From Gemmatimonadota bacterium (GTDB taxonomy: Bacteria > Gemmatimonadota > Gemmatimonadetes > Gemmatimonadales > GWC2-71-9): a stretch of DNA of 64,000 bases. Location of the stretch: contig CP070716.1 of NCBI GenBank assembly GCA_020350425.1, forward strand, positions 1,232,564-1,296,563. The letters are read 5' to 3'. A model generated the notes under the pieces. The model searched no databases. It had not been told where the DNA came from and saw only the letters and a program-made list of their open reading frames with translations. Shown in pieces: positions 25,296-63,243 of this stretch. A program made the translations under genes and the position numbers. How positions within the stretch are numbered: position 1 is the stretch's first letter; each line of letters opens with the position of its first letter.

Positions 25296-26486
25296 ATGCC
25301 AGTATTCGAGTATACCGCACGGACAGCGACGGGACAGGAAACCACGGGGACGGTTGACCTCCCCTCACGGGAGGACGTCGTCAAGCACCTTCGGCAGAAC
25401 CGGATGATGGTGATCCGGGTCCGCGAGCAGCAGAAGAGGAAGAAGGGCGGCAGGGTCCCGACCCGTGACGTCGTCATCTTCACTCGGCAGTTCGCCACGA
25501 TGATCAACTCCGGACTGCCCCTGGTGCAGGCCCTCGACATCCTGGCCCAACAGACCGAGAACAAGGTGCTTGCGGGGGTCACCCGCCAGGTCGTGTACGA
25601 CGTCGAAAGCGGCCACACCCTGGCCGACGCGTTGGACAAGCACAAGAACGCCTTCAGCCAACTCTTCGTGAACATGGTGGCTGCGGGTGAGGCCGGCGGT
25701 ATCCTCGACACCATTCTCCTCCGGCTGGCGACGTTCCTGGAAAAGAACGACGCGATCATACGGAAGGTGAAGGGCGCGATGATCTACCCTGCCGTGATCT
25801 TCTCGGTGGCGATCATTGCGGTGGTGGTGCTGCTCGTGTTCGTGATCCCGACCTTCGAGAGCATGTTCGCGTCGGTGAACCTGGAGCTGCCGCTTCCCAC
25901 GCGAGTGGTGATCGGGATGAGCCAGCTGTTGCAGGGCTTCTGGTGGCTGTTCCTGCTGTCGATAATCGCATTGTTCTTCCTGACCAAGCAGTACTATGCA
26001 ACGGAGGGCGGCCGGCTGAACATCGACAGAGCGCTGCTGAGTATGCCGGTGCTGGGCGATTTGCTGCGCAAGGCTGCGGTATCGCGCTTCACGCGCACGC
26101 TGAGCACTCTGTTGTCGTCGGGCGTCTCGATCCTCGAGGGCCTGGAGATCACGGCGCGGACCGCCGGTAATCAGGTGATCCACAACGCCGTGATGGAGTC
26201 ACGGGGCTCGATCGCCGGTGGTGAGACGATCGCCTCGCCGCTGGAGAAGTCGGGAGTGTTCCCGCCGATGGTGACCTCGATGATCGCGGTGGGTGAGGCC
26301 ACTGGTGGCTTGGACGAGATGCTCAGCAAGATCGCCGACTTCTACGACGACGAGGTGGACGCGGCCGTGAGCGCGCTCCTCTCGTTGATGGAGCCGGTCA
26401 TGATCGTCGTCCTCGGCGTGGTCGTGGGCGGCATGATCGTGGCGATGTACCTGCCGATCTTCGACATGATCAACGCGGTACAATAA
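25296..26486 (+). CDS. pilC: Type IV pilus platform protein PilC (GspF family)
   Basis: Two GspF repeats (FTRQFATMINSGLPL.., FTRTLSTLLSSGVSI..), 3 TM, 396 aa. Confidence 0.9.
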   Translation: MPVFEYTARTATGQETTGTVDLPSREDVVKHLRQNRMMVIRVREQQKRKKGGRVPTRDVVIFTRQFATMINSGLPLVQALDILAQQTENKVLAGVTRQVVYDVESGHTLADALDKHKNAFSQLFVNMVAAGEAGGILDTILLRLATFLEKNDAIIRKVKGAMIYPAVIFSVAIIAVVVLLVFVIPTFESMFASVNLELPLPTRVVIGMSQLLQGFWWLFLLSIIALFFLTKQYYATEGGRLNIDRALLSMPVLGDLLRKAAVSRFTRTLSTLLSSGVSILEGLEITARTAGNQVIHNAVMESRGSIAGGETIASPLEKSGVFPPMVTSMIAVGEATGGLDEMLSKIADFYDDEVDAAVSALLSLMEPVMIVVLGVVVGGMIVAMYLPIFDMINAVQ

Positions 26487-26498
26487 TCGAGAATACAC

Positions 26499-26537
26499 GG
26501 AGGCCCGCGTCCCGCTGGACGTGGGCCTCCCGTTTTT
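26499..26537 (+). terminator. Rho-independent terminator after pilC
   Basis: GGAGGCCCGCGTCC-cgct-GGACGTGGGCCTCC (14-bp stem, one G.U pair) followed by CGTTTTT. Confidence 0.7.
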
Positions 26538-26939: not shown

Positions 26940-28418
26940 ATGTTCGAGGCAGCCGAAGTCGGCAGCGCGCTCGACAAGGCGACCTACAAGCAGGAGCTCC
27001 CCGGTCTCCGCTCCGAGTTGCTGCGGGTGCAGCGGGACATCGCCGCCTCCGGACTCGGGCCGGTCGTCATCGTCGGAGGGGTCGAGGGCGTCGGCAAGGG
27101 TGAGGTGATGAACACCCTCCTCGAGTGGATGGACGCTCGGGGGGTCGAGGCCCACGCGTTCGGAGATCCGACGACCGAGGAGCAGGAGCGACCACGCTAT
27201 TGGCGCTTCTGGCGCGTGCTGCCACCGCGCGGGAAGATGGCCGTCCTCCTGGGCTCGTGGTACACCGATCCTATCGTCGATCGCGTCTTCGGGCGCATCG
27301 ATGAGGTGTCCTACGAGCGAGAGATGCGTCGGATCAGAGACTTCGAGCGCATGCTGGCGTTCGAGGGCGTCCCCGTGATCAAGTTCTGGCTGCACGTCGC
27401 GAAGGCGGAGTATGAGAAGCGGCTCCGGAAGGCCAGGAAGGACCCCGAGAAGCAGTGGCGCATCTCCAAGCGCACCTTGAAGTTCGCCAAGCGATACGAC
27501 GACTTTCGGCCGGTCTCGGAAGAGGCCCTGCGGCTCACCAGTACCGGGGTCGCTCCCTGGCACATCGTCGAGGCCCAGGACGAGCGGTATCGGGATTACA
27601 CCGTCGCCACGACGCTGGTACGGGGACTGCGGGAAGCGCTGGAGGAAGCGGGGGCGCGTCGCGCCGGCGAGGAGCAGCAGGTCGTGCTCCCGGATCCGCC
27701 GACGGTCAACGTCATCCGGCAGCTCGATCTCACCCAGCAGATTCCCCGCAAGGAGTACGTGCGCAAGCGCAACCGCAGCCAGGCGCGGCTGGGACGCCTG
27801 GTCCGTGAGCTGCACGCGTCCGAGCACTCGATGATCCTCGTGTTCGAGGGGCCCGACGCGGCGGGGAAGGGTGGCACGATCCGCCGCCTCACGGCGGTGA
27901 TGGACGCGCGCTTCTACCGCGTGCGCTCCGTGTCCGCCCCCACCGACGAGGAAGCGGCGCACCCGTACCTGTGGCGCTTCTGGCGCGACCTCCCGCGGCG
28001 CGGACACGTCACGATCTACGATCGCTCCTGGTACGGTAGGGTCCTGGTCGAGCGCATCGAGGGGTTTGCCGCGCGCGACGACTGGCAGCGGGCGTATGCC
28101 GAGATCAACGAGTTCGAGGCGCAGCTCGGCGAAGCCGGGACCATCGTGCTCAAGTTCTGGCTGGCGATCTCCCCTGAGGAACAGCTGCGCCGGTTCGAGG
28201 ATCGGGAGACCACGCCGTACAAGCAGTACAAGCTGACGCGAGAAGACTGGCGCAACCGCAAGAAGTGGGATGCCTACGAGGCCGCCGCCTGCGACATGAT
28301 CGAGCGAACCAGCACCGACCAGGCGCCGTGGATCCTGGTGCCTGCGGAGGACAAGCGCTTGGCTCGAGTGGAGGTGCTGCGGGCGGTGAGCAAGCGCCTG
28401 AGCCGGGAACTCACCTAG
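26940..28418 (+). CDS. pap: Two-domain PPK2 family enzyme (polyphosphate:AMP phosphotransferase type)
   Basis: 492 aa with two PPK2 repeats. N-domain has a degenerate P-loop (GGVEGVGKGEV), C-domain a canonical one (FEGPDAAGKGGTIRRL). The SWY..V..R motif occurs twice. Confidence 0.85.
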   Translation: MFEAAEVGSALDKATYKQELPGLRSELLRVQRDIAASGLGPVVIVGGVEGVGKGEVMNTLLEWMDARGVEAHAFGDPTTEEQERPRYWRFWRVLPPRGKMAVLLGSWYTDPIVDRVFGRIDEVSYEREMRRIRDFERMLAFEGVPVIKFWLHVAKAEYEKRLRKARKDPEKQWRISKRTLKFAKRYDDFRPVSEEALRLTSTGVAPWHIVEAQDERYRDYTVATTLVRGLREALEEAGARRAGEEQQVVLPDPPTVNVIRQLDLTQQIPRKEYVRKRNRSQARLGRLVRELHASEHSMILVFEGPDAAGKGGTIRRLTAVMDARFYRVRSVSAPTDEEAAHPYLWRFWRDLPRRGHVTIYDRSWYGRVLVERIEGFAARDDWQRAYAEINEFEAQLGEAGTIVLKFWLAISPEEQLRRFEDRETTPYKQYKLTREDWRNRKKWDAYEAAACDMIERTSTDQAPWILVPAEDKRLARVEVLRAVSKRLSRELT

Positions 28419-28645: not shown

Positions 28646-30325
28646 ATGCGCTGGATGATGGGGCGCACCCGCCCGCGTGGCGCCCCGCGGCAAACCGTTG
28701 GAGGCATCCCGTCGCCCCGAGGGATCCTGCGATGGATCTACTTGGGCCGGGTCACCGTAGCCATCGTGGTGTTCGTGGCCGCGGCGGTCTACTTCGCCGC
28801 GGTGCCGCCCGAGACGATCCTGATCCTCGCCATCGCGGCCATCTTGAGCGTCGTCGTGACCTCGCTGTCGGCGTGGTATACGCACGTCCGGGGGGCGGAG
28901 CCGGGCGTGACGTTCCTCTACTCCCAGGCCCTGTTCGACCTGGGGTTGGTCACCACCGTGGTGCACGTGACCGAGGGTCCCGCCAGCCAGTTCCCGGCCC
29001 TCTACATCCTGGTGATCGCAGTGGCCGCGGTCGTGATGCCGCTCGGATCGAGCCTGCTGATTACCGCGCTGGCGAGCCTGCTGTACCTGGCCGACATCAT
29101 CTGGTGGCAGCCGGTGCAGTTGTCGGTGGCCGTCTGGCTTCAGATAGCGGTGTTCGTGGCCGTGTTCACCGCCACGGGCCTGATCGCGAGCCGCGTGCGC
29201 GTCGTGGGAGCCGAGCGGGAGATCCTGCAGCGAGAGGTGCGGCGCCTCACGCTTGAAGCGGCAGATATTCTGCGCAACATCACGAGCGGCGTGGTGACCG
29301 TGGACGGTGATGGGCGGGTGCTCTACGCCAACCCTGCTGCGGTGGAGCTGCTCAATCTCCAGGGCCCGATGATCCGAGGCGAGCGCCTCAAGGACGTGGT
29401 GGGAGTCAGCGCGCCGGAGCTGCTTCAGACCATTGCGCTCACCCAATCAGGCGGACAGCGAACGCTGCGGGCGGAAGGCAAGGTCTCGGTGGGCGACCGC
29501 CGGTTCCCCATCGGAGTCACGACGACGAGCATCGACGATGGCGGGGCCAGGCCATCGGTGACTGCCATCTTCACCGACATCTCCGATCAAAAGCGACTCG
29601 AGGAGATGCACCTGCGTACGGAGCGGCTCGAGGCCGTGGCGGAGTTGTCCGCCTCGCTGGCCCACGAGATCAAGAACCCCTTGGCGTCGATTCGTTCCTC
29701 GATCGAGCAGCTCGGGGACGCCGCCCAGGACGAAGAGGAGCAGTTCCTCGTGCAGCTGGTGGTGCGTGAGAGCGATCGGCTGAGCCGGCTGCTGACCGAG
29801 TTCCTCGACTTCTCGAGGGTGCGCGTCACCGATTCCCGCGAGCTCGATCTGGGGGCGGTGGCTGAGAAGGCCGCCGACGTGGTGCGCAACCACCCGGACT
29901 GCGGGGACGGGGCCGTGATCGAGGTCATCCGGCGGCCAGCCTTCCTCGAGGGAGACGAGGATCTGCTGCACCGCGTGATCGTGAACCTGGCGCTCAACGC
30001 GGTCCAGGCCAGCGACGGGCACGGTCGGGTGACGATCGAGGTGCGAGAGGCACGGCCCGACGAGCTGCCCCGCGGACTGCCCATGGGGCGGGCCGTTCTG
30101 TTGAAGGTCTCTGACGAAGGGCCGGGCATTCCGAAGGATCTCGCGGAACGGCTCTTCGAGCCGTTCGTCAGTGGCCGCACCGGGGGCTCGGGTCTTGGGC
30201 TCGCCATCGCGCAGCGCGCGGTGGAGGCCCACCGAGGGGTGATTCTGGTCGAGTCGATGCCCGGTGAAGGCACGGCGTTCAGCGTGGTGCTGCCGAGCGG
30301 TGGGACAACGGAGGAAACGGCATGA
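28646..30325 (+). CDS. pilS: PilS-like sensor histidine kinase
   Basis: ATG 28646 preceded by GGGAGG. Multi-TM N-terminus, PAS-like segment, H-box ELSASLAHEIKNPLASI, N/G boxes (LNAVQAS, DEGPGI, GGSGLGLAI). The track start at 28586 is a TTG with no RBS. Confidence 0.75.
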   Translation: MRWMMGRTRPRGAPRQTVGGIPSPRGILRWIYLGRVTVAIVVFVAAAVYFAAVPPETILILAIAAILSVVVTSLSAWYTHVRGAEPGVTFLYSQALFDLGLVTTVVHVTEGPASQFPALYILVIAVAAVVMPLGSSLLITALASLLYLADIIWWQPVQLSVAVWLQIAVFVAVFTATGLIASRVRVVGAEREILQREVRRLTLEAADILRNITSGVVTVDGDGRVLYANPAAVELLNLQGPMIRGERLKDVVGVSAPELLQTIALTQSGGQRTLRAEGKVSVGDRRFPIGVTTTSIDDGGARPSVTAIFTDISDQKRLEEMHLRTERLEAVAELSASLAHEIKNPLASIRSSIEQLGDAAQDEEEQFLVQLVVRESDRLSRLLTEFLDFSRVRVTDSRELDLGAVAEKAADVVRNHPDCGDGAVIEVIRRPAFLEGDEDLLHRVIVNLALNAVQASDGHGRVTIEVREARPDELPRGLPMGRAVLLKVSDEGPGIPKDLAERLFEPFVSGRTGGSGLGLAIAQRAVEAHRGVILVESMPGEGTAFSVVLPSGGTTEETA

Positions 30326-31704
30326 GGCTTTCCAGGCCAAGCATTCTGATCATCGACGATGAATCCGGTATTCTGGATACGCTGCGGATTCTCCTCAAGA
30401 ACCAAGGCTTCACGCCGCTGACGGCGCAGGGGGGGAGAGCCGGGCTGGATGCACTGCGGGCGTCGCCGCCCGACATCGTACTGACCGATGTGCGGATGCC
30501 GCAGGTGTCGGGCATCGACATCCTGGAGGCGGCTCGCGAGCAGGACCCGGAGCTGCCGGTCATCCTGATGACGGCCCAGGCGTCCCTGCAATCGGCGATC
30601 CAGGCGGTGAACCAGGGGGCGTTCTACTACATCCAGAAGCCGTTTTCCAACGACGACCTGCTCGCGATCTGCCGGCGGGCGGCCGAGTACCGCCAGCTGC
30701 GCACCGAGAACAAGAGTCTCAAGCGGGAGATTCGGAAGCGGGAGCGGTCCAACTCCATCAAGCCCATCGGCAACGCCAAGCCGTTCATGGAAGTGCTGCA
30801 GCTGGCCGAGCAGGTGGCGCCCACGGAGTCCACGGTATTGATCCTGGGTGAGAGCGGCACGGGCAAAGAGTTAGTCGCGCGCTACATCCACGAACTGTCC
30901 GAGCGGAGCGAGGGCCCGTTCTTCTCGATCAACTGCGGCGCCCTGCCTGAGAGCCTCCTGGAGTCAGAGCTGTTCGGGCACGTCAAGGGGTCCTTCACGG
31001 GAGCCGTGCGCGACAAGCAGGGGCTCTTCGCAGCGGCGCGGGGCGGCACCTTCTTCCTCGACGAGATTGCCGAAACGCAGCCCTCGACGCAGGTGAAGCT
31101 GCTGCGCGTCCTCCAGGAGCGGGAGGCGCTGCCCGTGGGTGGCACCGAGCCGGTACCGGTGGACGTGCGCGTGCTGGCGGCCACGAACCGCGACCTCGAC
31201 GAAGCGATGCGCCAGGGCACGTTCCGGTCCGACCTGTACTACCGACTCAACGTGATCTCGATGCGGCTTCCGCCGCTACGGGAGCGGCGTGAGGATATCC
31301 CGGTGCTCGCCGAGGCATTCCTGGAGCGGATCGCACGCGATCGAAACCAGTCGGTCAAGAGCTTGTCACAAGAGGCGTTGGACGCCGTCATGGCCTACGA
31401 CTGGCCCGGCAATGTGCGCGAGCTGGAGAACGCCCTCGAACACGCCGTCCTGCTGAGCGCCGGTGGGGTGGTCGCAGGGACGGCGCTGCCGGATCGGGTG
31501 CTCTCGAGGGAGGCGAGGCCGCTCATCACGGAGCGCGCACCGCACAACCCCACGATGGACGTGATCGAGCGGGCGTACATCCTCTGGGTGCTTCAGGCCG
31601 AGGGGGGCAACAAGACGCGTGCCGCCGAAGTGCTGGGTATCGATCCGTCCACACTCTATCGCAAGCTGGCCCGCTACGAGGCTGAAGGCCTCGCCGTGCA
31701 GTAA
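30322..31704 (+). CDS. pilR: PilR-like sigma54-dependent response regulator (NtrC family)
   Basis: ATGA overlap with the kinase gene. Canonical receiver (IIDDE...DIVLTDVRMP...QKP), AAA+ GESGTGKE / GAFTGA-type loop (GSFTGA), C-terminal Fis-type HTH. Confidence 0.85.
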   Translation: MRLSRPSILIIDDESGILDTLRILLKNQGFTPLTAQGGRAGLDALRASPPDIVLTDVRMPQVSGIDILEAAREQDPELPVILMTAQASLQSAIQAVNQGAFYYIQKPFSNDDLLAICRRAAEYRQLRTENKSLKREIRKRERSNSIKPIGNAKPFMEVLQLAEQVAPTESTVLILGESGTGKELVARYIHELSERSEGPFFSINCGALPESLLESELFGHVKGSFTGAVRDKQGLFAAARGGTFFLDEIAETQPSTQVKLLRVLQEREALPVGGTEPVPVDVRVLAATNRDLDEAMRQGTFRSDLYYRLNVISMRLPPLRERREDIPVLAEAFLERIARDRNQSVKSLSQEALDAVMAYDWPGNVRELENALEHAVLLSAGGVVAGTALPDRVLSREARPLITERAPHNPTMDVIERAYILWVLQAEGGNKTRAAEVLGIDPSTLYRKLARYEAEGLAVQ

Positions 31705-31712
31705 GGAGCCCC

Positions 31713-34700
31713 GTGAGACCGCTTCTCTATCTCGTCTTCATCCTGTCCGGGGCTGCCGGCCTCGTGTACGAGTCCATCTGGGCTCGGTACCTGGGCCTGT
31801 TCGTCGGCCACGCCGCATACGCCCAGATCCTCACCATCGGGATATTCCTGGGTGGCATGGCGCTGGGGGCCATGCTAGTGGGCTCCCGTACCGAGCGCCT
31901 GGCGGACCCGCTGCGGTGGTACGCCCTGATCGAGCTGGCCGTGGGAGCGGTGGGGCTCTTCTTCCACGAGATCTACGGTGGCGTGACCGGCTTCGCGTAC
32001 GACACGCTCTTCCCCGTGGTGGGAAACGGCGTGCTCCTCACGCTGACGAAGTGGGTCATCGCGGGCAGCCTGATCTTGCCGCAGTCCATTCTCCTGGGAA
32101 CGACCTTCCCGCTGATGGGCGCGGGAGTCCTCCGGCGCTACGCGGCGAATCCCGGCCGCACGCTGGCCGTCCTGTACTTCGCCAACAGCCTCGGGGCCGC
32201 GGTCGGCGTCGTGATCGCTGGGTTTTATCTCCTTCAGGCGGTGGGGCTGCCAGGCACGCTGCTCGTCGCGGCGATGCTCAACCTGGTGGCGGCACTGGGG
32301 AGCGGCTTCGTCGCCCAGCGCACGCCGCTGCGCGGCGCGGTGCGTGAGCCGGCGCCGGCGCAAGCGATGCCGGTTGCCGTCACAGACGCCGCCGCGTTGC
32401 GACAGCAGCAGTTGGTGCTGCTCCTGCTGGGCGTGAGCTTCGGGACTGCCGTGGCTTCGTTCATTTATGAGATCGCCTGGCTGCGCATGCTCGCGCTCGT
32501 GCTGGGGAGCGCCACGCACTCCTTCGAGCTCATGCTGTCGGCGTTCATCCTCGGTCTCGCGCTGGGCTCGCTCTGGGTCCGGCGGCGTGCCGACCGGTGG
32601 AGCAAGCCGCTTCGTGCCCTGGGTATCGTGCAGTGGGTGATGGGGTTCTCGGCGCTCGCGACGCTTCCGCTGTACGGACAGTCGTTCGCGTGGATGGCCG
32701 ACCTCATGCAGTCGTTTGCCAGAACGGAGGGGGGCTACGAGGGCTTCACGATGGCGCGGTACGCGTTGTGCCTGGCGGTGATGCTGCCGTCCACGTTCTG
32801 CGCCGGCATCACGCTGCCGCTCATCACGCGCACGTTGCTCACCAGCGCCACCGGCGAACGCGCCATCGGCTCCGTGTACGGCGTGAACACGCTCGGGTCC
32901 ATTGTGGGGGTTGCCGTGGCGGGGCTGGTCCTGATGCCGTTGCTTGGGGTGCGGCTGCTTCTGGTGTTCGGTGCGACGCTCGACATGGCGCTCGGCGTGG
33001 GAATCCTCTGGGTAGTAGCCGGCGCGAAGCCCCGCGCTCGGCAACTGGCCTACGGTGCGCTGGCCGCGACCGCACTCGTCACCGTGGTCGTGGCCGCGCA
33101 ACGCGGCTTCGACCGGCGGATGCTCGCCAGCGGCGTGTTCCGCAACGGGCGGTTGGACGGCGAGACGCGTGAGGTGCTCTACTACCGGGACGGTCGTACC
33201 GCCACCGTGGCCGCATGGCGCCATACGGAGAACGGCGTCACGGCGCTCGCCACCAACGGCAAGGTCGACGGGTCGGTGCCGGGGCACTGGCTGGTGGCGT
33301 GCTCGGACTCCACGGTGCGCGAGCCGCTGTACACCGACATCTCCACCCAGACGCTCGCCCCGCTCATTACCCTGGCGCACGCGCCGCGCGCGCGGATCGC
33401 AGCGGTGGTAGGGCACGGAACCGGGATGTCGTCACAGATCATGCTGGCGAACACCGAACTCCAGCGAGTGACGACTATCGAGATCGAGCCGGAGATGCTC
33501 GCCGCCTCTCGCGCCCTGTATCCCACGAACGCGAGGGTCTTCGACGACCCGCGGTCGCACATCGTGATCGAAGATGCACGGGCATTCCTGTCGGCGACGG
33601 AGGAGAAGTACGACATCATTCTCTCCGAGCCCTCCAATCCGTGGGTGAGTGGCGTGGCGAGCCTCTTCACCGGCGAGTTCTATCGCCGGATCGCGCAGTC
33701 GCTGGCGGAGGGCGGCGTGTTCGGCCAGTGGATCCATCTCTACGAGCTGAACGACGGCCTCGTGATGAGCGTCATCGCCGCGGTGCACCGGACGTTTCCC
33801 TCCTATGAGGTCTTTCTGACGGCGCGGGGAGACATGCTGATCGTGGCCGCCGCCTCGGAGAGCCTGCCGGCTCCCGATTGGTCGATTCTCGAGTGGCCAG
33901 CGATTCAGGAGGACTTCTGCCACGCCGTGGCGCCGACCGCGGAGATGATGGAGGCCACGCGGCTGACGCACAGGACGGTGTTGGCGGCGCTGCTCGACGG
34001 CTGGCAGCAGCCGAACTCCGACTTCTATCCGGTGCTCGACCTCGGTGCGGAGCGCGCGCGGTACCAAAACCAATACGCTCGAGGGGTCGGCGATCTCGCG
34101 ACGCGGCGAATCGATATCGCCGCGGCCATCTCGCTGCGTCGTGTGCAGCCGATCGCCGCCGGCGCGATGCCGTTGACCGACGTTCCTCGGGTGCAGGCGC
34201 TGGTCCTGGCGGGTGCCCTTCGCGATGCCCGGGCGGGTGACGGGGTGGACACCGCGGTCACGCTCGCCGGCCTCGAAGACGCCCGGTTCCGCCAGCTGCG
34301 GTGGGACGCCATCCTGGGTGCAGACGATCCGCCTACGGATTGGAGGCGCTGGCTCGGGGAGCTATTGGCGGTGGAGCGGGATCGGCACGGCGGCACGTAC
34401 GGCTACATCGACGAGTCGCTGCTGCAGCCGGCGCTGCGGTACCTCGATCGGCACGACGCGCCCGCCGAGGCGCGTTGGGTGGTGGACTTCTACTTCGGGC
34501 TTGCCGGGTGGAACTTCGGGGTGGCCGCCGCCGCCGCCGACGCCCTGTTCCAGGCAGGGGCGCAGGATGGCGGCTGGATCTCTCGGGAGGATCTCGCGGA
34601 GGGGGGCGTGATCGCGAAATTGCGGACCGGAGACGTGGCTGGCGCCCGGCACCTGTATGATGAATTGACGTCAGACGTCGCGGATCGGGAGCGGTACCTC

Positions 34701-34757
34701 CGCCTGCAGCTCCTCGACGCCTATCTGCATGTCTTCTCGAACGGACCCGCGCGATGA
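31713..34757 (+). CDS. Fused polytopic membrane domain / spermidine-synthase-like (class I SAM-MTase fold) protein with extra C-terminal domain, 1014 aa
   Basis: GTG 31713 lies 8 nt after pilR, after AAGGAG. About 480 aa of TM helices, then [10 protein letters not shown]...[25 protein letters not shown] (spermidine synthase-type core), then ~300 aa unassigned. Confidence 0.7.
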
Positions 34758-35521
34758 GCCTTCGACGACGGAGAGAGCACTACCGCGCCGTACCCCTCCC
34801 GGATGACTGGAACGACCTCGTGGTGACCGCGGTCGTGCCCGCGTTCAATGAGGAGCACACGATCGAGCAGAGCCTGCGGCGGATCCGGGAGGTCCCGCTG
34901 AGGGTCGAGATCGTCGTGGTGAACGACGGATCGTCCGACCGCACGGGGGAGGTCCTCGACCGGCTCGAGCAGGAGGGGCTTGTCGACCGCGTCATCCATC
35001 AGCCCAAGAACAGGGGCAAGGGGGCCGCGGTGCGCGCGGGGATCGCGGCGGCCACGGGACACGTGATCGTGATCCAGGATGCCGACCTCGAGTACGATCC
35101 GATGGAGTACCCGACGCTCCTCGAGCCGATCAGGCTCGACCGGGCCGATGCGGTGTTCGGTTCCCGGTTCCAGTCTGGGCCGCGGCGGGTGCTGTACTTC
35201 TGGCACTCCGTGGGAAATCGCTTCCTCACGCTCCTCTCCAACATGCTCACGGACCTGAACCTCACCGATATGGAGACCTGCTACAAGATGGTCCGCGCCG
35301 ATCTCATGAAGGCGCTGCCGCTCGTCTCCAAGCGCTTCGGGATCGAGCCGGAGCTCACCGCCCGACTGTCGCAGGCGGGCGCTCGCATCTGGGAGGTGCC
35401 GATCAGCTACAGCGGGCGTACGTACGCCGAGGGCAAGAAGATCGACTGGCGGGACGGCGTCGCCGCCATCTGGCACATCCTGCGCTTCAACTTCTTGCCG
35501 TCACGACCGAAGACGCGGTGA
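34754..35521 (+). CDS. GT2 glycosyltransferase, polyprenyl-phosphate sugar synthase-like (DPM1/GtrB/ArnC type)
   Basis: ATGA overlap with the upstream gene. VVPAFNEE...[11 protein letters not shown]...NRGKGAAV...DADLEYDP. Confidence 0.8.
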
Positions 35522-37518
35522 CGCGAACGCTCACGCAGGTGCTGTGGCGAGGGCTCGGGGTCGCGATCCTCGTCCTGCCCCTGCTCAGCATCCCGCGGTG
35601 GGTGGACGCACCGGATCCCGGTCCCGACTGGAGTGTGCACCTGCGGGCGTGGCTGATCGGCGCCTTCGTGGTGCTGGTGGTGGGTCTGGCGGTGGGCTGG
35701 CTGGCCCGGACGGCACAGCCGCGCGCACGCGCCTGGCCGGCGTGGGGCGACGCGGCGTTCGTCGGCGGGATGGCAGTGCTGCTCACACTCGCGGCAGCCT
35801 ACACGATGCGGGTGGCCTTTGCCTCGAATCCGCATCTCGTGGACGAGGTCGCGCAGCTCTTTCAGGCACGGGTCTTCGCCTCGGGGCGCCTCGCGGCGCC
35901 GCCTCCGCAGCTGCCTGAGTTCTTCCTGTTCACGCACACCTGGATCACCCAGGCCGGATGGGTCTCGCAGTTCCCGCCGGTACATGCCGTGGCGCTGGCA
36001 GCCGGCATGCTGGTTCGCGCGGAGTGGCTGGTGAATCCCGTGGTGGGCGGCGCCAGCGTGGTGCTCGTCTACCTGGTGACCCGCGGCATGTTCGGCTCGG
36101 GCACGGCCCGCGTGGCGGCAGGTCTGTGGGCGGTCTCGGCGTGGGTGCTCTTCATGTCGGCCACGTACATGAACCACGCGCTTGCGGTCGCCCTGGTGCT
36201 CGGGGCGTGGGCCTGTGTCTGGGCGCCGGGCGGGAGACGCGTCGTCCGCTTCGTCGCGGCCGGAGCGTTGCTCGGGGCTGCGGCCGCGACGCGGCCGCTC
36301 GACGCCGTCGCCGGTGCGCTTCCGCTACTGGTACACCTGGGCCTGGCCCGCAGGCCACGGGACCTCGGACTGCTGGTGCTCGGCGGCGTCCCCATGGCAC
36401 TGGCCCTGGGCTACTACAACTGGCGCCTCTTCGGTGGGCCGCTCGACTTCGGGTACACGGCGCTGTGGGGGGAGGGGCACCAGCTGGGCTTCCACGCCGA
36501 CGCATGGGGCTACGAGTACACGCCGCTGGTGGGCCTGAGCAACATGGTGGCGGCGATCCGCCGGCTGCATATCTACCTGTTCGAGTGGCCGATCCCCGCC
36601 CTGCTGCCGCTCGGCTTGTGGGCGCTGTTCGCGCGCCGACGGGAGCCCGCCGATCTCGCCCTCGGGCTCGGGGTCGCCGCGGGGCCCGCCCTCTACTTCT
36701 TCTACTGGCACTCGGGCTTCTATCCCGGTCCGCGGTTCTACTTCATCGCGGCCCCGTTCCTGGTCATCGGCACGGCCCGGGCGCTCCGTTGGGCCTGGCT
36801 CGCGGCCCGCAGCCGGGCGGACGCCCACCTGCGCTGGGACGTGGCGCTCGCCGCGCTGTGCGCGGGGGTGCTGCTCTGGAGCTGGGTCGACATGCTGCCG
36901 CGGCGATTCGAGGTCTACCGGACGGGGTTGCCGTCGCTCAAGTACCACCCCGAGCGCAGTCTGGCCGAGCGAGGGGTGCGGCAGGCGCTGGTGCTGGTGC
37001 CGGAGAGCTGGGGGGCCCGGATCATCACGGACCTCTGGGCGCTCGGGGCTCCGCCCGGCGTGGTCGAGCGCGTCTACCGCAGGCTCGACGCGTGCGACCT
37101 CCACCTCTTTGCCCGGCAGGCCCGGGCCGAGGCGCTGGCGCCCGCAGGTGTGATCGACAGCCTGGAGCGGCGCTACGCCGCCGCGGCCGCGGCGGCACCA
37201 CTTGTGGCCGGGTCGCGCGATCCCACCCTGCGGCTCTGGCCGGGCCGCGCACTCGATCCGAGGTGCGCGGTGCAGCTTGAGCACGACCGGGGTGGGTTCA
37301 CGCTCTACGGGAGCCTGGCCTGGCGCAACCCGGTGGGGCTCCGCACGGGCATCGTGTTCGCCCGCGATCGGTACGCGCGGAATCGGCAACTCTTTGCCGA
37401 GTACCCTGGTTGGGAGGTGTGGCGCTTTGCCCCGCCGGCCGGGGAGCCCGATGCCCGACCGCAGCTGCGTCGCCTCGGCCTGGCCGAGGAGCTTGGCGAC
37501 GATCGGCAACTCCCGTGA
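35518..37518 (+). CDS. GT-C-like (ArnT/PMT-type) polytopic membrane glycosyltransferase candidate, 666 aa
   Basis: GTGA overlap. About 10-12 TM helices. Acidic motif in the first predicted external loop ([12 protein letters not shown]). About 250-aa soluble C-terminal domain. Confidence 0.5.
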
Positions 37519-39365
37519 CCCGAGTGCTGCGAGGCCTGGGACCCCGGGCACGTGCCGCACTCGTCGCGGGTCTCGTGGCCCTCGCGGTGTACGCGAACGC
37601 CCCGCGCAACCGCTGGGCGCTGGACGACGTCGGAATCGTCCTCCAGAATCCGGCGGCGCACTCCGTGCCCGCAGCGTGGGCGGCGCGATTCTCTCCCTAT
37701 TGGCCGGTCGAGCAGGGCCACCCCGCCGGGCTGTACCGGCCGGCGGTGATCCTGTCGTACGCCGTCGACTGGACCCTGGCTGATGGTGCGCCGTGGTGGT
37801 TCCACCTGCACAATGTGGTGCTGCATGCCCTCGCGACGGGTCTCGTGGTGCTCGTCGCGACGGCGTGGCTGCCGGTGCCCGCGGCACTCGCGGCCGGGCT
37901 CGTCTTCGCCGTGCACCCCGTGCATGTGGAGGCCGTGGCCAATGTGGTGGGCCGTGCGGAGCTCCTGGCGGCGCTCGGCCTGCTGCTCGCGGTGCTGGCC
38001 TTTCGGAGCTACCGAGGCGCCGATTCGCGCGCCGCCCGCGTCGGGTGGGGGGCGGCAACGGTCGCGGCCGTGCTGCTCGCCCTCTTCTCGAAGGAACACG
38101 CCGTCGTCGCCGTGGCGGTGCTGGCGCTCGATGCGTGGCTCGCACGCTCCGCGGCGCGGCGGTGGGGGGGTGGTCTGCTGGCGGTGATCCTCGGGTGCAC
38201 GGTGGCGTGGCTGGTGCTCTGGCAGACGATCGCCGCCCCCTACGTCGAGGGGGTCATCGCCCCCACCCTGCGCCACCTGTCGTTCGGCCAGCGGCTCGCA
38301 ACCATGTTGCCGGTCTACCTCGAGGTGCTGCGGCTGCTGGCCTGGCCGCTCCGCCTCGCCTATGACTACAACCCGCAGGTCATTCCGCAGCGAACCGAGC
38401 TTACGGTGGTGGCGGCGCTGGGGGCGCTGGTCGCAGGCGCGGTGGTGGCGCTGGGCCTGTTGAGTCGGCGACGCGCCCCTGCGGTGGCGTTCGGGATTCT
38501 GATGGCGGCGGTGTCGTACGCGCCCACGTCGAACCTGCTGTTCGCCTCAGGTACGGTGCTGGGCGAACGCGCCTTGTACCTCCCGGCGCTCGCGCCCGCG
38601 CTGGCCGCCGCCTGGCTCCTGGCCAGCGCGTGGGGCGGGCGGTGGCGCAGGATCGCCCTGGTGGGGTTGGGCGCCCTCCTGGCGGTCTACAGCGTCCGCA
38701 CCGTCACGCGCACGCCGTTCTGGATGGATGGCCCCACGGTACTCATCGAAAGCGTCGTTGCGCACCCCGAGAACTACCGCACGCGCCGGCAGCTGGCCCG
38801 CCAGCGAGCGATGCGCGGCGACTCCCTCGGGGCGTTGACCGACTACCTGGTGGCGGGTGAGCTGTTCGACCGAGACGCGTCCGTCGCGACCGAGAGTGCT
38901 GCCCTCGCGCTGGCGATGGGTCGGCGACGCGTCGCGCTGCGCGAGGCGCGCCGCGCCGTCGCGCTCGAGCCGGGCGAGCCCGCCGCGACCAGTGCGCTGG
39001 TGAATGCGTACCTCGCGGTGGGGTGGACAGACTCGGCGCTGACTGCGGCGCGTGCGGCAATCGATCACCGGCCGCGCGACGTGACGCTGGCGGCGCTGTA
39101 CGTCGAGCTTCACCAGTGGCTGGTGTCGCCCGAGTGGCAGCAGGGACTGGCGCGGGCACGGCTGGAGTGGCTCAACGGCCGCCGCGCCGCCGCCGTCGCG
39201 GCGCTCAATTCGGCGGTCGCCTCACTTGAGTGGGACACGCAGGTGGACCAGGTCTGCCCGGAGCTACAAACGGTGAGGGCCGTGGGGGATACGGAGGCCA
39301 CCGAGTGGGAACAGCACCTGGAAGGGGCGCTCCGCCGGGCCGACGTGGCCTGCGGCCCCGATTGA
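37515..39365 (+). CDS. GT-C-like membrane protein with C-terminal TPR repeats (PMT_2/DUF1736, TMTC-like layout), 616 aa
   Basis: GTG 37515 overlaps the upstream stop (GTGA). N-terminus YANAPRNRWALDDVGIVLQNP (DD loop motif typical of this family). Multi-TM, then TPR-like helices (aa ~440-560). Confidence 0.55.
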   Translation: MTRVLRGLGPRARAALVAGLVALAVYANAPRNRWALDDVGIVLQNPAAHSVPAAWAARFSPYWPVEQGHPAGLYRPAVILSYAVDWTLADGAPWWFHLHNVVLHALATGLVVLVATAWLPVPAALAAGLVFAVHPVHVEAVANVVGRAELLAALGLLLAVLAFRSYRGADSRAARVGWGAATVAAVLLALFSKEHAVVAVAVLALDAWLARSAARRWGGGLLAVILGCTVAWLVLWQTIAAPYVEGVIAPTLRHLSFGQRLATMLPVYLEVLRLLAWPLRLAYDYNPQVIPQRTELTVVAALGALVAGAVVALGLLSRRRAPAVAFGILMAAVSYAPTSNLLFASGTVLGERALYLPALAPALAAAWLLASAWGGRWRRIALVGLGALLAVYSVRTVTRTPFWMDGPTVLIESVVAHPENYRTRRQLARQRAMRGDSLGALTDYLVAGELFDRDASVATESAALALAMGRRRVALREARRAVALEPGEPAATSALVNAYLAVGWTDSALTAARAAIDHRPRDVTLAALYVELHQWLVSPEWQQGLARARLEWLNGRRAAAVAALNSAVASLEWDTQVDQVCPELQTVRAVGDTEATEWEQHLEGALRRADVACGPD

Positions 39366-39503: not shown

Positions 39504-39518
39504 TGGCACGGGGATTGC
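39504..39518 (+). promoter_or_regulatory. Sigma54 (-24/-12) promoter of the major pilin gene
   Basis: TGGCAC-gggga-TTGC fits the TGGCAC-N5-TTGC consensus exactly. Lies 86 nt upstream of the pilA ATG. A PilR-type activator is encoded in the locus. Confidence 0.7.
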
Positions 39519-39603
39519 TTCAGTATCTGGACAGATCAAAGCGCCCAGGTATGCCACGTGGGCACCGGGCTGTCACTCGAATACCATCCGCGGAGGTGTA
39601 TTG

Positions 39604-39987
39604 ATGAATCGCAAGGGCTTCACCCTGATCGAGCTTCTGATCGTGGTGGTGATCATCGGCATTCTGGCTGCCATCGCTATCCCGAAGTTCGCGAACACGA
39701 AGGAGAAGGCGTATCTCGCGTCGATGAAGGCCGACCTGCGTAACCTGGTGAACGCGCAGGAGAGCTACTTCGCCGACTGGACGACCTACGCCGCTGCCGG
39801 CGCCGGTGGGTTCACGTACAACCAGTCGGCCGGCGTGACCATCGCTGTCGGGGCCGTCGCCGGTGACGGTTGGGACGCGACCGCGACGCACACGGGTGCG
39901 CCGACCAAGACGTGCGCCATCGCCGTGGGCTCGGGGACGAACAGCGTCAAGGGAACGGCTGCCGAGGGCGAGCCGGCCTGTAACTAG
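39604..39987 (+). CDS. pilA: Type IVa major pilin (PilA-like), copy 1
   Basis: MNRKG|FTLIELLIVVVIIGILAAIAIP: short leader, Gly-1, Phe+1, Glu+5. C-terminal Cys...Cys loop (TKTC...EPAC N). The 5' part of ORF 39469.. is not coding. Confidence 0.9.
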   Translation: MNRKGFTLIELLIVVVIIGILAAIAIPKFANTKEKAYLASMKADLRNLVNAQESYFADWTTYAAAGAGGFTYNQSAGVTIAVGAVAGDGWDATATHTGAPTKTCAIAVGSGTNSVKGTAAEGEPACN

Positions 39988-40013
39988 GCGAGGCTGCGTC
40001 AGCGGGTAAAGGT

Positions 40014-40045
40014 GAGGCGGCGGAGGGCTGGCCCTTCGCCGCCTC
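40014..40045 (+). terminator. Strong hairpin between the two pilin genes (terminator/attenuator candidate)
   Basis: GAGGCGGCG-g-AGGGC-tg-GCCCT-t-CGCCGCCTC: 9+5 bp interrupted stem, no U-tract. Confidence 0.45.
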
Positions 40046-40067
40046 ATGCCTGTGATGGATACCTCTC

Positions 40068-40478
40068 ATGGTGAGGACGCGCCCCATGCATAGCGACGCG
40101 CGAGGGTTCACCATCATCGAGCTCCTGATCGTCGTGGTGATCATCGGGATTCTGGCTGCCATCGCGATCCCCAAGTTTGTGAACACCAAGGAGAAGGCGT
40201 ACATGGCGTCGATGAGGTCGGATCTGCGCAACCTCGCGACGTCGCAAGAGGGGTACCTCCACGACTTCTTCACGTACGGCACGCAGGCGGACATGGTACC
40301 GCCGCGGTTTCAGGCGTCATCCGGTGTGACCGTGACGATCACCGGCGTGAGTCCCGCGGGCTGGCAGGCTACCGCGCAGCACAGCCTGGCTCCCACCAAG
40401 GTCTGTGCGATCTTTTACGGCTCGGGTGCCGCGCCCATACCCCCCGCGACCGACGAGGGTGAGGTGGCCTGCAACTAG
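40068..40478 (+). CDS. Type IVa pilin paralog, copy 2
   Basis: ...HSDARG|FTIIELLIVVVIIGILAAIAIPKFVNTKEKAY. Same C-terminal architecture (TKVC...EVACN). An alternative ATG at 40086 would give a 7-aa leader. Confidence 0.85.
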   Translation: MVRTRPMHSDARGFTIIELLIVVVIIGILAAIAIPKFVNTKEKAYMASMRSDLRNLATSQEGYLHDFFTYGTQADMVPPRFQASSGVTVTITGVSPAGWQATAQHSLAPTKVCAIFYGSGAAPIPPATDEGEVACN

Positions 40479-43095: not shown

Positions 43096-44145
43096 ATGGC
43101 GATTCTCGGGCTCGGTGGCGCAAAATCGACGGTCGCCCTGGACATCGGCAGCGGGCTCCTCAAGCTGGTCGAGGTCGACCACAAGAAGGGCGACCCGGTC
43201 CTGAGCCGGGTGGCGGTCGCGCCCGTTCTGGCGGACGCGATCGTCGAAGGCGAGGTCATGGACCCCGATATCGTAGCCGACGCGATCCAGGGACTGTTCA
43301 GGACCTCCGGCATCAAGCAGAAGCAGGTGGTGGTGGCGGTCGGCGGTCGCGACGTGATCATCAAGAAGATCCAGGTCGACCGCATGAAGGAGAGCGACGC
43401 GTACGAGGTGGTGCGCTGGGAGGCCCAGCAGCACGTGCCGTTCGACATCGAGGCGGTGGAGCTCGACTTCCAGATCCTGGACCCCGACGGCGAGGGGCTC
43501 CAGATGGATGTGCTCCTGGTGGCAGCCAAGCGGGACCTGGTGGAGGACAAGCTCCAGCTTCTCATCCAGGCCGGTTTGGAGCCCGCCATCGTGGACGTGG
43601 ATGCCTTCGCCCTGCACAACGCCTTCGAGCTGAACTACCCGGAGGCGATGAACGGTGTCGTTGCCCTTCTCAATATCGGGCATGAAGTAACCAACGTGAA
43701 CATCCTGCTCGACGGAGTGCCGCTGCTGACCCGGGACCTGAGCGTCGGGACCCGGAAGTTCCGCGAGGACCTGCAGCGGGAGCGGGGCATGTCGGCCGAC
43801 GATGCAGATCACTTGCTCCAGGGATACGAGCTCACGCCCGACCTGGAGCCCTACGTCAAGAACCGGGGCGAGGAGATGTCCGTGGGGTTGGAGCGGGCCG
43901 GAGCCTTTCTCCAGACCGCAGCCCGGGACGCCGGACCGCTGCAGAGGGTCTACTGCTGCGGCGGTGGTGCCAGGATTCCGGGGCTGTCCGACGTGCTCGG
44001 CGAACGCCTCCGCCTCCCGGTGGAGATCGCCAGCCCGCTGCAGCGGATGCGGGTGAAGGATCATGTGTTCGACACGCTCAACGCCGACGAGATGGGGCCG
44101 CTGCTGATGCTCGCGACCGGCCTCGCGCTCAGGCGGCGGGGCTGA
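43096..44145 (+). CDS. pilM: Type IV pilus assembly protein PilM (actin-like ATPase fold)
   Basis: VALDIGSGLLKLVEV..., EAQQHVPF, VDVDAFAL, GGGARIPGL motifs. 349 aa. Confidence 0.9.
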   Translation: MAILGLGGAKSTVALDIGSGLLKLVEVDHKKGDPVLSRVAVAPVLADAIVEGEVMDPDIVADAIQGLFRTSGIKQKQVVVAVGGRDVIIKKIQVDRMKESDAYEVVRWEAQQHVPFDIEAVELDFQILDPDGEGLQMDVLLVAAKRDLVEDKLQLLIQAGLEPAIVDVDAFALHNAFELNYPEAMNGVVALLNIGHEVTNVNILLDGVPLLTRDLSVGTRKFREDLQRERGMSADDADHLLQGYELTPDLEPYVKNRGEEMSVGLERAGAFLQTAARDAGPLQRVYCCGGGARIPGLSDVLGERLRLPVEIASPLQRMRVKDHVFDTLNADEMGPLLMLATGLALRRRG

Positions 44146-44164
44146 GCGTCAGGGGAGCAGGACT

Positions 44165-44842
44165 ATGAGGATCGAGATCAACCTGCTCGGGGGGCCGAGG
44201 AAGAAGGCCGGCGCCGGCATTTCTCTTCCCAACATCGGCGAGCTGATCAAAGGGGTCAAAGATCCCCTGCTGCTCGGCGCCGTCGCGGCCTGGATCGTGG
44301 TAGGAGCTGGGGCGGGCTACCTCTTCGTCACCATGCAGGCCCAAGTCACCGGCCTGCGCGACGAAGCGACGCAGGCACGGCAGGAGGCCCGTCGGTTCTC
44401 AAACATGATCGGGCAGAAGCGGCGAGCCGAGCAACTGCGCGACTCCCTCGAAACGGAATTGCGGGAGATCCGTGCCATCGATTCGGACCGCTATATCTGG
44501 CCCCACGTTCTGGAAGAGGTGACCAAGTCGTTGCCCGACTACACTTGGCTCGTGGGTCTCAACATGGTGCAAGCGGCGCCGGCGGTGACCACGGAGGGCC
44601 AACCGGTCGGACCACAGCCTGTGCGGTTCATGATCGACGGACGCACCTCCGACATCGGGGCGTACACGCGGTTTCTGCGGAATCTGGCCAATTCGCCTTG
44701 GGTCGCGAATGTCGTACCGGGTGCCAATCGGACGGTGGTGGAGGATGACAAGGCGCTGACGGCCTTCAGCATCACGGCCACATTCCGACAGGCGGATTCG
44801 TCTTTCATGCGGACCGTTCCGGTCTCCGCATCGGTGCGCTAG
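44165..44842 (+). CDS. pilN: Type IV pilus assembly protein PilN
   Basis: N-terminal MRIEINLLGG (INLL motif), single TM, coiled coil. Position after pilM. Confidence 0.85.
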   Translation: MRIEINLLGGPRKKAGAGISLPNIGELIKGVKDPLLLGAVAAWIVVGAGAGYLFVTMQAQVTGLRDEATQARQEARRFSNMIGQKRRAEQLRDSLETELREIRAIDSDRYIWPHVLEEVTKSLPDYTWLVGLNMVQAAPAVTTEGQPVGPQPVRFMIDGRTSDIGAYTRFLRNLANSPWVANVVPGANRTVVEDDKALTAFSITATFRQADSSFMRTVPVSASVR

Positions 44843-44851
44843 GGAGGAGTC

Positions 44852-45457
44852 ATGGCACTCTCCCAGAAGGATCGGCAACAGCTCCTCGTGCTGCTCATCA
44901 TCATCGCTGCCGCCGGCGGCGGGGCGTTCTGGTATCTCTGGCGGGCGCCGCAGGCAGCGGAGATCGCGCAGCTCGAGATCGAGATCGACTCGCTGCGGGC
45001 GACGGTGGACTCGGCCAGGCGGGACCTGGCCTCGGGAACGGTCGAAAGCCTGCGGCAGCGCGTGGCAGACTACGAGGCCAGTCTCGGGCTCATGCGCCGC
45101 CTCGTCCCGCTGGAGAACGAGGTGCCGAGCCTGATCGACGACATCGCGTCACGGGCCACGCTCCGAGGGGTCCATATCCAAGAGATCAACCCGCAGTCTG
45201 TTGATGCCGAGGGGATGTTCGATACGCACCGCTACCGGGTAAGCGTCGTGGGCCATTACGACGAGATCGGCGAGTTCCTGGCCGACGTGGCCTCGCTCCC
45301 CCGGATCATGGTGCCCTATGAGCTGACGCTGGGGATCGCTCCCCTGACAGCCCAGGTTGCCTACGGGGATACCACGGGCGCTCTGCTGCAGGCGCAGTTC
45401 CAGCTGCGGACGTTCGTGAAGCCGCCGGCCACGGGAGGCAGCGGTGAGACACAATAA
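44852..45457 (+). CDS. pilO: Type IV pilus assembly protein PilO
   Basis: Single TM (LLVLLIIIAAAGGGAFWY), coiled coil, ferredoxin-like C-domain. Position. Confidence 0.8.
   Translation: MALSQKDRQQLLVLLIIIAAAGGGAFWYLWRAPQAAEIAQLEIEIDSLRATVDSARRDLASGTVESLRQRVADYEASLGLMRRLVPLENEVPSLIDDIASRATLRGVHIQEINPQSVDAEGMFDTHRYRVSVVGHYDEIGEFLADVASLPRIMVPYELTLGIAPLTAQVAYGDTTGALLQAQFQLRTFVKPPATGGSGETQ

Positions 45458-61707: not shown

Positions 61708-61711
<4 letters not shown>
61217..61711 (+). CDS. mogA: MogA/MoaB-family molybdenum cofactor biosynthesis protein
   Basis: AAGGAG then GTG 61217. IRVAVLTVSD...LIVTTGGTGLGPRDVTPEAT...NLPGS. The upstream part of ORF 60725.. is off-frame over gcvT. Confidence 0.75.

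Positions 61712-63243
<1,532 letters not shown>

Follow-up and report, generated by a model that had tools for sequence, protein, structure and literature searches.

A candidate pilus glycosylation module with TMTC/TfpW-like GT-C proteins between pilSR and the pilin genes of Gemmatimonadota

In a 64-kb stretch of the Gemmatimonadota contig CP070716.1 (hereafter the window, G+C about 68%), a chain of four genes lies between the regulator genes pilSR and two type IVa pilin genes and encodes a fused MFS/SpeE-like protein, a soluble GT2 and two GT-C membrane proteins of 666 and 616 aa. Our preferred reading, held with slightly more confidence than doubt, is that the GT2 and the two GT-Cs, the conserved core of the block, constitute a dedicated pathway that draws on polyprenyl-phosphate sugars to glycosylate the type IV pilus in the periplasm. 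The block joins glycosyltransferases of definable classes, with conserved catalytic motifs, to a compact operon geometry and to a linkage with pilus genes that runs through the phylum. We infer the acceptor, the sugar and an O-linkage, the pilin being proposed as acceptor on the strength of gene linkage. It is probable that the subunits of the pilus receive a coat of sugar in the periplasm, by a route like that of Pseudomonas TfpW and the animal TMTC enzymes. The features on which the argument turns, with genes taken from the list of open reading frames (ORFs), are as follows.

28646..30325 (+): pilS, sensor histidine kinase (Pfam 6TM_PilS, PAS, HisKA, HATPase_c), a gene that related loci keep ahead of the block
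30322..31704 (+): pilR, sigma-54-dependent response regulator (NCBIfam AtoC 1e-137, NtrC 2.4e-124; strong matches, yet all below the curated cut-offs)
31713..34757 (+): gene 1, fused MFS/SpeE-like protein, 1014 aa
34754..35521 (+): gene 2, GT2, 255 aa
35518..37518 (+): gene 3, GT-C, 666 aa
37515..39365 (+): gene 4, TMTC/TfpW-like GT-C, 616 aa counted from GTG
39504..39518 (+): sigma-54 promoter TGGCACGGGGATTGC, read directly as an exact TGGCAC-N5-TTGC with 0 mismatches
39601..39987 (+): pilA1, type IVa major-pilin-like, candidate acceptor (Pfam N_methyl 8.7e-10; leader MNRKG|FTLIELL)
40068..40478 (+): pilA2, second pilin, candidate acceptor (Pfam N_methyl 1.5e-8)

An earlier, sequence-only reading of this DNA had taken the four genes to be chained by start/stop overlaps, and each junction reads exactly as it described (ATGA at 34754-34757, GTGA at 35518-35521 and GTGA at 37515-37518). 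The chain also begins 8 nt after pilR, as had been claimed, the pilR stop codon occupying 31702-31704 and the GTG of gene 1 lying at 31713. An AAGGAG ribosome-binding site ahead of gene 1 overlaps the pilR stop codon, and the start codons of all four chain genes are backed by the lengths and N-termini of their orthologues. That no terminator interrupts the region from pilS to 39365 was borne out to the extent that no convincing one was found there, only two overlapping weak sites inside gene 1 (32199-32221); the terminator scan over 18 kb returned 5 sites, with 5.4 expected by chance. Downstream, the two pilins that had been placed directly after the block both carry N_methyl domains, and the promoter TGGCACGGGGATTGC lies some 85 nt ahead of pilA1; even with one mismatch tolerated, nothing else in the 64 kb fits the sigma-54 consensus. 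No sigma-54 consensus was found ahead of pilA2. Because the glycosylation genes would ride in the pilS-pilR operon and the pilins on their own PilR/sigma-54 promoter, enzyme and substrate would be co-regulated.

The pilin encoded by pilA1 has its best NCBIfam match in the PilA_Myxo type, and the second pilin is conserved in most related loci. Both had been described as rich in Ser and Thr; they are, but modestly so, at 14-15% against 5-11% in neighbouring proteins. Between the two genes lies a perfect 9-bp G+C-rich inverted repeat (GAGGCGGCG…CGCCGCCTC, 40011-40047, + strand), which is followed by no T-tract.

We surveyed the linkage of the block to pili by searching a profile of the 616-aa family against one genome per GTDB species and inspecting the best 80 of roughly 490 relatives (individual loci are given below by L numbers). 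These 80 loci, at 32-70% identity, are all from Gemmatimonadota, in the orders Gemmatimonadales and Longimicrobiales. The usual gene order, obtained by tblastn with the window proteins, is pilS, pilR, an optional gene, GT2, 1-4 GT-Cs, 1-3 pilins, minor pilins and pilMNOPQ. A pilin gene follows the last GT-C/TPR gene in 58 of the 61 loci that have at least 1.5 kb of downstream sequence, in 51 of them within 1 kb, and a pilR orthologue (63-97% identical) lies ahead of the block in 31 of the 36 loci whose upstream sequence reaches at least 7 kb. The synteny survives at 32-45% identity across the two orders. The sequence-only reading had counted it against its own proposal if the block generally lay apart from pil genes, for example beside lipopolysaccharide (LPS) genes; among the best 80 loci it almost always occupies the pilR-pilA interval. 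A tblastn search of plasmids gave no match.

Gene content within this interval varies. The number of GT-C genes runs from 1 to 4 across species, some loci having three or four TPR-type paralogues; 666-type genes are found in about half of the loci, and the GT2 gene is present in 22 of 29 loci with full context. Many relatives carry an extra GT-C paralogue between the 666-type and TPR-type genes, of which the window has no copy. It is about 500 aa long and TPR-less in L001 (8502-10004) and L002 (8508-10004), and 608 aa long with weak TPR matches in L003 (6637-8463); Pfam assigned no GT-C family to any of these three. Comparison by BLASTP rejected the idea that the approximately 500-aa gene of L001 corresponds to the membrane part of either gene 1 or gene 3. 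An 80-aa ORF of L002 (6410-6652), between GT2 and the first GT-C, was considered as a flippase and set aside, as it has the look of a remnant of a lost or truncated 666-type gene, being similar to the N-terminal end of that family (…LPLTRWAGAFDTGSPW…).

The GT2 is the most readily classified member of the block, with a Pfam Glycos_transf_2 match of 1.6e-35 and the predicted DADLEYDP segment in place, DAD being its DXD motif. Its nearest NCBIfam models are AglJ and Dol-P-hexose transferase, with no equivalog cut-off reached, and its best matches among PDB sequences are Pyrococcus DPMS (5mlz, 1.5e-16), GtrB and ArnC. All three of these enzymes load a monosaccharide onto polyprenyl phosphate, so that the earlier assignment to the polyprenyl-phosphate-sugar synthase type agrees with the best solved relatives. 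The 255-aa protein has no hydrophobic segment and thus lacks the C-terminal transmembrane helices of the GtrB/ArnC/archaeal DPMS subtype; in being soluble it resembles the anchorless DPM1/Ppm1 subtype. Gene 2 would accordingly be named a putative polyprenyl-phosphate sugar synthase of DPM1/Ppm1-like type.

For the 666-aa protein, evidence comes from the structural and profile levels. The window protein itself has no Pfam match and received no PMT, PMT_2 or DUF1736 call in Pfam or NCBIfam, and phmmer and profile searches of the family against PDB sequences returned nothing meaningful. An AlphaFold2 (AF2) model built with 37 orthologues in the input reached a mean predicted local distance difference test score (pLDDT) of 90.6, and in a Foldseek search of the PDB its top 31 matches were all GT-C proteins at probability 1.00, including AglB (9e-6), ArnT (1e-5, TM 0.47), ALG12 (TM 0.59), ALG9, AftA/B, PglB, STT3 and Pmt4. 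Further, the family consensus matches PMT_2 at 2.2e-8 and 34.9 bits, above the gathering score of 26.1; PF13231 is precomputed for 55 of the 120 orthologues listed, some of which bear the NCBI name 'glycosyltransferase family 39'. The acidic VDEV motif that had been noticed in the first loop is supported by the orthologue alignment, in which D109 never varies and the conservation of E110 is 90% or more. Gene 3 is, on its modelled fold and family profile, a PMT_2-like GT-C glycosyltransferase, as the sequence-only reading had proposed from its letters, and only these structure-level and profile-level tests reveal it as such. Its C-terminal alpha/beta domain of about 200 aa holds two invariant cysteines, C526 and C583, which suggests that they form a periplasmic disulfide.

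The 616-aa protein combines a comparable membrane domain with a TPR domain. Its AF2 model (pLDDT 90.2) has about 11-12 membrane helices and, within the first loop, a further two short ones; residues ~406-608 form a TPR solenoid, which is seen in both the model and the TPR profile matches and confirms the C-terminal TPRs expected of it. Pfam gave only a weak TPR_19 match, and neither Pfam nor NCBIfam called PMT, PMT_2 or DUF1736; on the window's own proteins, then, the families named beforehand were recovered for Glycos_transf_2 and weakly for TPR but not for PMT, PMT_2 or DUF1736. The TPRs also dominated other searches. Foldseek lists of the model against PDB and BFVD were filled by TPR-domain matches, and phmmer and profile searches against PDB sequences found TPR proteins only, a profile restricted to the transmembrane part finding nothing meaningful.

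Membership of the GT-C class is instead supported by family profiles. A profile of 142 orthologues and paralogues of the 616-aa protein, drawn from the 80 loci, aligned with the fold-verified 666-aa family in hhalign at a probability of 71% (E 3.7e-5) over 337 colinear columns, and on this comparison the 616-aa protein is homologous to the 666-aa family. Such broader paralogue profiles were needed because the narrow orthologue profiles, A1 against A3, gave a probability of only 8.9%. Alignment by hhalign to the single E. coli ArnT sequence was negative for both families and is uninformative, since the fold-verified 666-aa family failed as well. The consensus of the 616-aa transmembrane domain matches PMT_2 above the gathering score (8.7e-7, 29.7 bits), and directly after it follows a match to TMTC_DUF1736 (PF08409) at 5.2e-5 and 23.6 bits, below the gathering score of 27. 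Among individual sequences, weak DUF1736 matches occur in 7 of 40 orthologues and not in the window protein, and direct scans of ten paralogues at other loci returned no more than two PMT_2 matches, both weak.

Conservation within the family is concentrated in putative catalytic motifs. The DD loop that had been picked out holds up: in alignment A1, of 40 sequences, D38 never varies and D37 is kept in at least 90%, and both aspartates are present in 141 of 142 paralogue rows. Of the 142 orthologues and paralogues, about 140 share the DD, RP, HxxHxE, KE and ER motifs without change. The segment LVFAVHPVHVEAV is nearly the same as 'LLFAVHPIHT' of human TMTC3 (PMC7801869). Ahead of the TPR domain lies a Pro-rich segment, Y391-X8-P401-F402-X4-P407 (VYSVRTVTRTPFWMDGP), in which P401 and W403 are invariant. 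Alignment A1 also shows conserved C581 and C613; conserved cysteine pairs in the C-terminal domains of both GT-Cs suggest that these domains are located in the periplasm, where disulfides form. The layout of TMTC proteins had been recognised in this protein from the start. The analogy is well founded in architecture and motifs because of PMT_2, a DUF1736-like region, DD, the FAVHP-type motif (FAVHPVHVE) and the TPRs, but DUF1736 itself falls below its gathering score.

Taken as a pathway, the block would work as follows. Working at the cytoplasmic side of the membrane, the soluble GT2 would take a monosaccharide (probably a hexose) from a nucleotide sugar and load it onto undecaprenyl phosphate (Und-P), and the lipid-linked sugar would be flipped across the membrane by some flippase. 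In the periplasm, the TMTC/TfpW-like GT-C may then bind pilin through its TPRs and, before the pilus is assembled, use its loop-1 DD site to attach the sugar to Ser/Thr of PilA1, PilA2 or both, and the TPR-less second GT-C may extend the glycan or serve a second site or a second pilin.

Several points weigh against this proposal. Pilin glycosylation in Gemmatimonadota is unproven, the evidence being genomic. The scanned 64-kb window holds no GtrA or ArnE/F-type flippase and no nucleotide-sugar genes, gene order puts the glycosylation genes with the transcript of the regulators and not with that of the pilins, and GT-C and pilin copy numbers are weakly correlated (r = 0.37, n = 29). Lipids, too, are substrates within the PMT_2 family, as ArnT shows. 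As to the proteins themselves, the GT-Cs of the window lie below the Pfam threshold, PMT_2 being reached at the level of the family consensus; the GT-C fold of the 616-aa protein is profile evidence only, because TPR matches swamped the fold search; and a simple hydropathy count is unreliable in these Ala-rich proteins and does not settle the topology of the GT-Cs. A search of the literature returned nothing on Gemmatimonadota pilin glycosylation.

Some of these points would fit other functions. The block could serve a general periplasmic O-glycosylation of PMT/TMTC-like kind that acts on many envelope substrates, with pilins one or none of them and the pil linkage a matter of co-regulation. 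PMT_2/TMTC-type architecture is typical of enzymes acting on many proteins, the GT genes are in the operon of the regulators and not in that of the pilins, and bacterial O-glycosylation systems are often broad-spectrum (PMC9239064). We nevertheless think such breadth unlikely, given how tightly the position upstream of pilA is kept (the 51 of 61 loci with a pilin within 1 kb) and given that a variable number of GT-C paralogues at one site looks like a dedicated, fast-evolving pilus-modification locus. The same linkage specifically to pilins bears on whether the GT-Cs, under PilSR control, modify a non-protein envelope component instead, either lipid A/LPS core in the manner of ArnT or an exopolysaccharide (EPS) on which pilus-dependent motility relies. 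ArnT is among the best fold matches of the 666-aa protein, the GT2 also resembles ArnC, and a gene of the LptF/G family lies 17 kb upstream; yet the 616-aa enzyme has a protein-binding TPR domain and TMTC-type motifs, and no 4-amino-4-deoxy-L-arabinose (Ara4N), LPS or EPS biosynthesis genes lie beside the block in the window or the inspected loci, so that a lipid or polysaccharide target appears rather improbable.

It would be more surprising still if the GT-C-like proteins were non-catalytic pilin accessories or chaperones, or if their linkage to pili were a historical accident in one phylum. Unrelated kinds of pilin accessory genes do adjoin pilA in other bacteria (PMC11841053), and all of the evidence is genomic, but residues with a putative role in catalysis or phosphate binding do not vary among 142 sequences, the donor-making GT2 is co-conserved with the GT-Cs, and the gene order persists across two orders at identities as low as 32-45%. 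We regard this as very unlikely, and the dedicated glycosylation of the pilus remains the reading that we favour.

Gene 1, which the sequence-only reading had counted as a member of the module, did not keep that place. It consists of an MFS-like membrane domain, a divergent SpeE-like domain of class I methyltransferase fold and a C-terminal domain of about 300 aa. Pfam finds Spermine_synth at residues 558-702 (3.7e-14), and the protein passes the NCBIfam subfamily model 'fused MFS/spermidine synthase' (MFS_SpdSyn; 104 bits against a cut-off of 40) while falling below the SpeE equivalog cut-offs (best 124 bits against 472; TIGR00417 63 against 250). The catalytic motifs of SpeE are GGGDG and D-S-T-D-P. 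Read directly against this consensus, gene 1 has GHGTG for GGGDG and EPSNP for DSTDP, and with both motifs altered aminopropyl transfer is therefore doubtful. Gene 1 occupies the slot between pilR and GT2 only in close relatives of the window (L003-L005, L007); elsewhere it is either vacant or taken by a 210-245 aa class I methyltransferase, and two gene 1 orthologues that were checked in other genomes (53-57%) lie among unrelated genes, far from the pil cluster. Because it is present in the slot only in close relatives and is unlinked or replaced elsewhere, gene 1 is a lineage-specific accessory passenger of the operon and not part of its core.

An MFS/SpeE-like gene is also found on the opposite strand in or near the pil cluster of three more distant genomes, L074 (18071-21134, - strand), L078 (11808-14846, - strand) and L080 (18306-21344, - strand), in L078 between the GT-C gene and pilA. 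An association with the pilus locus therefore recurs in varied arrangements, though it is absent in other genomes. Class I S-adenosylmethionine-dependent methyltransferases stand in the slot in L002 (4947-5684), L025 (3145-3792) and L037 (4043-4672), with matches to Methyltransf_12/23/25 down to 7e-17, and the glycan may be methylated in such species. Homology of these stand-alone enzymes to the SpeE-like domain of gene 1 was considered and rejected, BLASTP finding no similarity between them.

The window holds a complete type IVa pilus cluster, according to the ORF list together with Pfam and NCBIfam. The remaining features around the block are these.

22413-24119: pilB
24123-25268: pilT
25296-26486: pilC
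26499..26530 (+): strong intrinsic-terminator-like hairpin 3' of pilC (14-bp stem with 11 GC pairs, then a T-run)
26940-28418 (+): two-domain PPK2 (PPK2 2.3e-138)
between pilA2 and pilMNOPQ: two minor-pilin-like genes
43096-47761: pilMNOPQ

The hairpin after pilC is the likely upstream limit of a transcription unit that comprises PPK2, pilS, pilR and the glycosylation genes. The PPK2 gene, which sits between pilC and pilS, may head the pilSR-glycosylation transcript because it lies 3' of the sole strong terminator of the region; it keeps the same spot in at least two relatives (L004, L040). Most related loci have another pilS/pilR-like pair, divergent in sequence (about 30% and 44% identity), between the major and minor pilins, about 1-3 kb downstream of the pilins in L008, L012, L014, L015, L017, L022, L025 and many others; it is absent from the window, from its nearest relatives (L003, L005 and L007) and from L001.

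Just upstream of the pilus cluster, a gene at 14606-20728 (+) encodes a 2040-aa protein with a match to SprA_N (3.4e-11), a domain of the type IX secretion/gliding translocon, and is followed by an M28 peptidase gene (20731-21612). Directly upstream of pilB, at 21705-22322 (+), is a gene for a ComEA-like protein with tandem helix-hairpin-helix motifs (HHH_3 1.9e-36), a neighbour that hints at a role of the pilus in DNA uptake. Right after pilQ, 47779-50277 (+) encodes an 832-aa protein with only a marginal match to the Ig domain Big_7, and a large gene is similarly placed in L001 and L002. Near the end of the window, at 61309-63243 (+), lies a second sigma-54-dependent activator, of 644 aa, whose long N-terminal region has no family assignment.

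What is known of type IV pilin glycosylation comes mostly from a small number of Proteobacteria and from the PilO/TfpO/PglL and TfpW routes; there it shapes phage resistance, adhesion and the surface chemistry of the pilus. If our reading is true, a self-contained locus that unites donor synthase, GT-Cs and substrate would be the standard state of pili in Gemmatimonadota, a poorly studied phylum of soil and water. It would add a route in which a monosaccharide is transferred from Und-P by a variable number of GT-Cs. It would also offer a genetically simple bacterial relative of the TMTCs, whose activity has been argued mostly from sequence and modelling. A bolder possibility, which we advance only tentatively and think doubtful, is a phylum-wide bacterial counterpart of the TMTC pathway hard-wired in the PilSR operon and dedicated to type IV pilins, in which GT-C paralogues, 1-4 in number and quick to duplicate, receive their donor from an Und-P-sugar synthase encoded in cis and build lineage-specific pilus glycans, for example in defence against pilus-specific phages. 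Pilin glycosylation by GT-Cs would then have arrived at another route, independent of that of TfpW, and the locus would be a tractable prokaryotic model for TPR-based substrate recognition by TMTC-type enzymes. The annotation is in any case corrected, the genes of the block being currently named 'hypothetical' or 'TPR repeat protein'.

Among known systems, those of PilO, TfpO and PglL share with the proposed module the periplasmic modification of type IV pilins and, in P. aeruginosa, a gene beside pilA. These enzymes are Wzy_C/O-antigen-ligase-like and transfer preassembled Und-PP-oligosaccharides en bloc. Pfam and NCBIfam found no Wzy_C/O-antigen-ligase domain in the four chain proteins, and the enzymes of the block are, judged by their sequences, unrelated to the Wzy_C type. 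The earlier claim of a difference from the PilO/TfpO/PglL routes is correct in this respect, but it overlooked TfpW, a GT-C with TPRs that is encoded beside pilA and glycosylates pilin.

In the actinobacterial Ppm1/Pmt pair, Pmt is a PMT-clan GT-C that glycosylates exported proteins. The GT-Cs described here have no PMT MIR domain, carry a TPR or alpha/beta C-terminal domain instead and are embedded in a pilus locus. The likeness lies in the pairing of an anchorless DPM1-type polyprenyl-P-sugar synthase (PMC3485146) with such a GT-C. The three-component systems GtrA/GtrB/GtrC and ArnC/ArnEF/ArnT likewise follow a GT2 plus GT-C logic (PMC11127046), the GT2 of the block matching GtrB and ArnC and the 666-aa protein matching the ArnT fold. 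They differ in modifying O-antigen, lipid A or teichoic acids, not pilins; moreover, the block has no GtrA or ArnE/F-type flippase gene, and its GT2 is without the C-terminal transmembrane helices of GtrB and ArnC. Because the genes of the chain overlap, there is no room within it for a small flippase ORF.

TMTCs are described as 11-TM GT-C enzymes that have a DD motif in loop 1 and a DUF1736 loop, and whose TPRs face the lumen (PMC7801869). The 616-aa protein resembles the eukaryotic O-mannosyltransferases TMTC1-4 (GT-C/PMT clan, GT105) in its PMT_2-like transmembrane domain, DUF1736-like loop, C-terminal TPRs and loop-1 DD, and in a near-identical 'LxFAVHP(V/I)H(V/T)E' motif (TMTC3 'LLFAVHPIHT', PMC7801869). 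It differs in that DUF1736 stays below threshold and in being set in the bacterial periplasm rather than the endoplasmic reticulum; the donor would be an Und-P-sugar rather than Dol-P-Man, and the presumed acceptor a pilin rather than cadherins.

The closest precedent is TfpW of P. aeruginosa, a 646-aa protein predicted to cross the membrane 11 times, which combines a GT-C DDX motif in its first periplasmic loop with a periplasmic TPR domain at the C-terminus (10.1101/2020.04.19.049825). It is the group IV pilin D-arabinofuranosyl transferase, required for pilin arabinosylation with pilin Ser/Thr as acceptor; it is best modelled on ArnT, its gene lies beside pilA, and homologues adjoin pilA in several Proteobacteria (10.1101/2020.04.19.049825). 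By description, TfpW (AAM52060.1) is matched here by a 616-aa GT-C with an invariant DD and a TPR domain at ~406-608, encoded 236 nt upstream of pilA1. In both proteins a conserved Tyr...Pro-Phe...Pro segment precedes the TPR domain, with a similar position but a spacing that is not matched (YX6PFX7P in TfpW, YX8PFX4P here). The 616-aa gene differs in lying upstream of pilA and inside the pilSR operon, and the locus in having multiple GT-C paralogues (1-4 further ones), in belonging to Gemmatimonadota rather than Proteobacteria and in a cis-encoded GT2, as against the unlinked DprE1/E2 decaprenyl-P-arabinose pathway of TfpW. No DprE1/E2 or phosphoribosyl pyrophosphate (PRPP) transferase genes were seen among the scanned genes of the window, and the pathway that serves TfpW is itself unlinked in P. 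aeruginosa. Because TfpW is a GT-C enzyme with TPRs encoded next to pilA, the logic of GT-C pilin glycosylation has a precedent and was to be expected; what is new here is a phylum-wide, self-contained, TMTC-like and modular locus.

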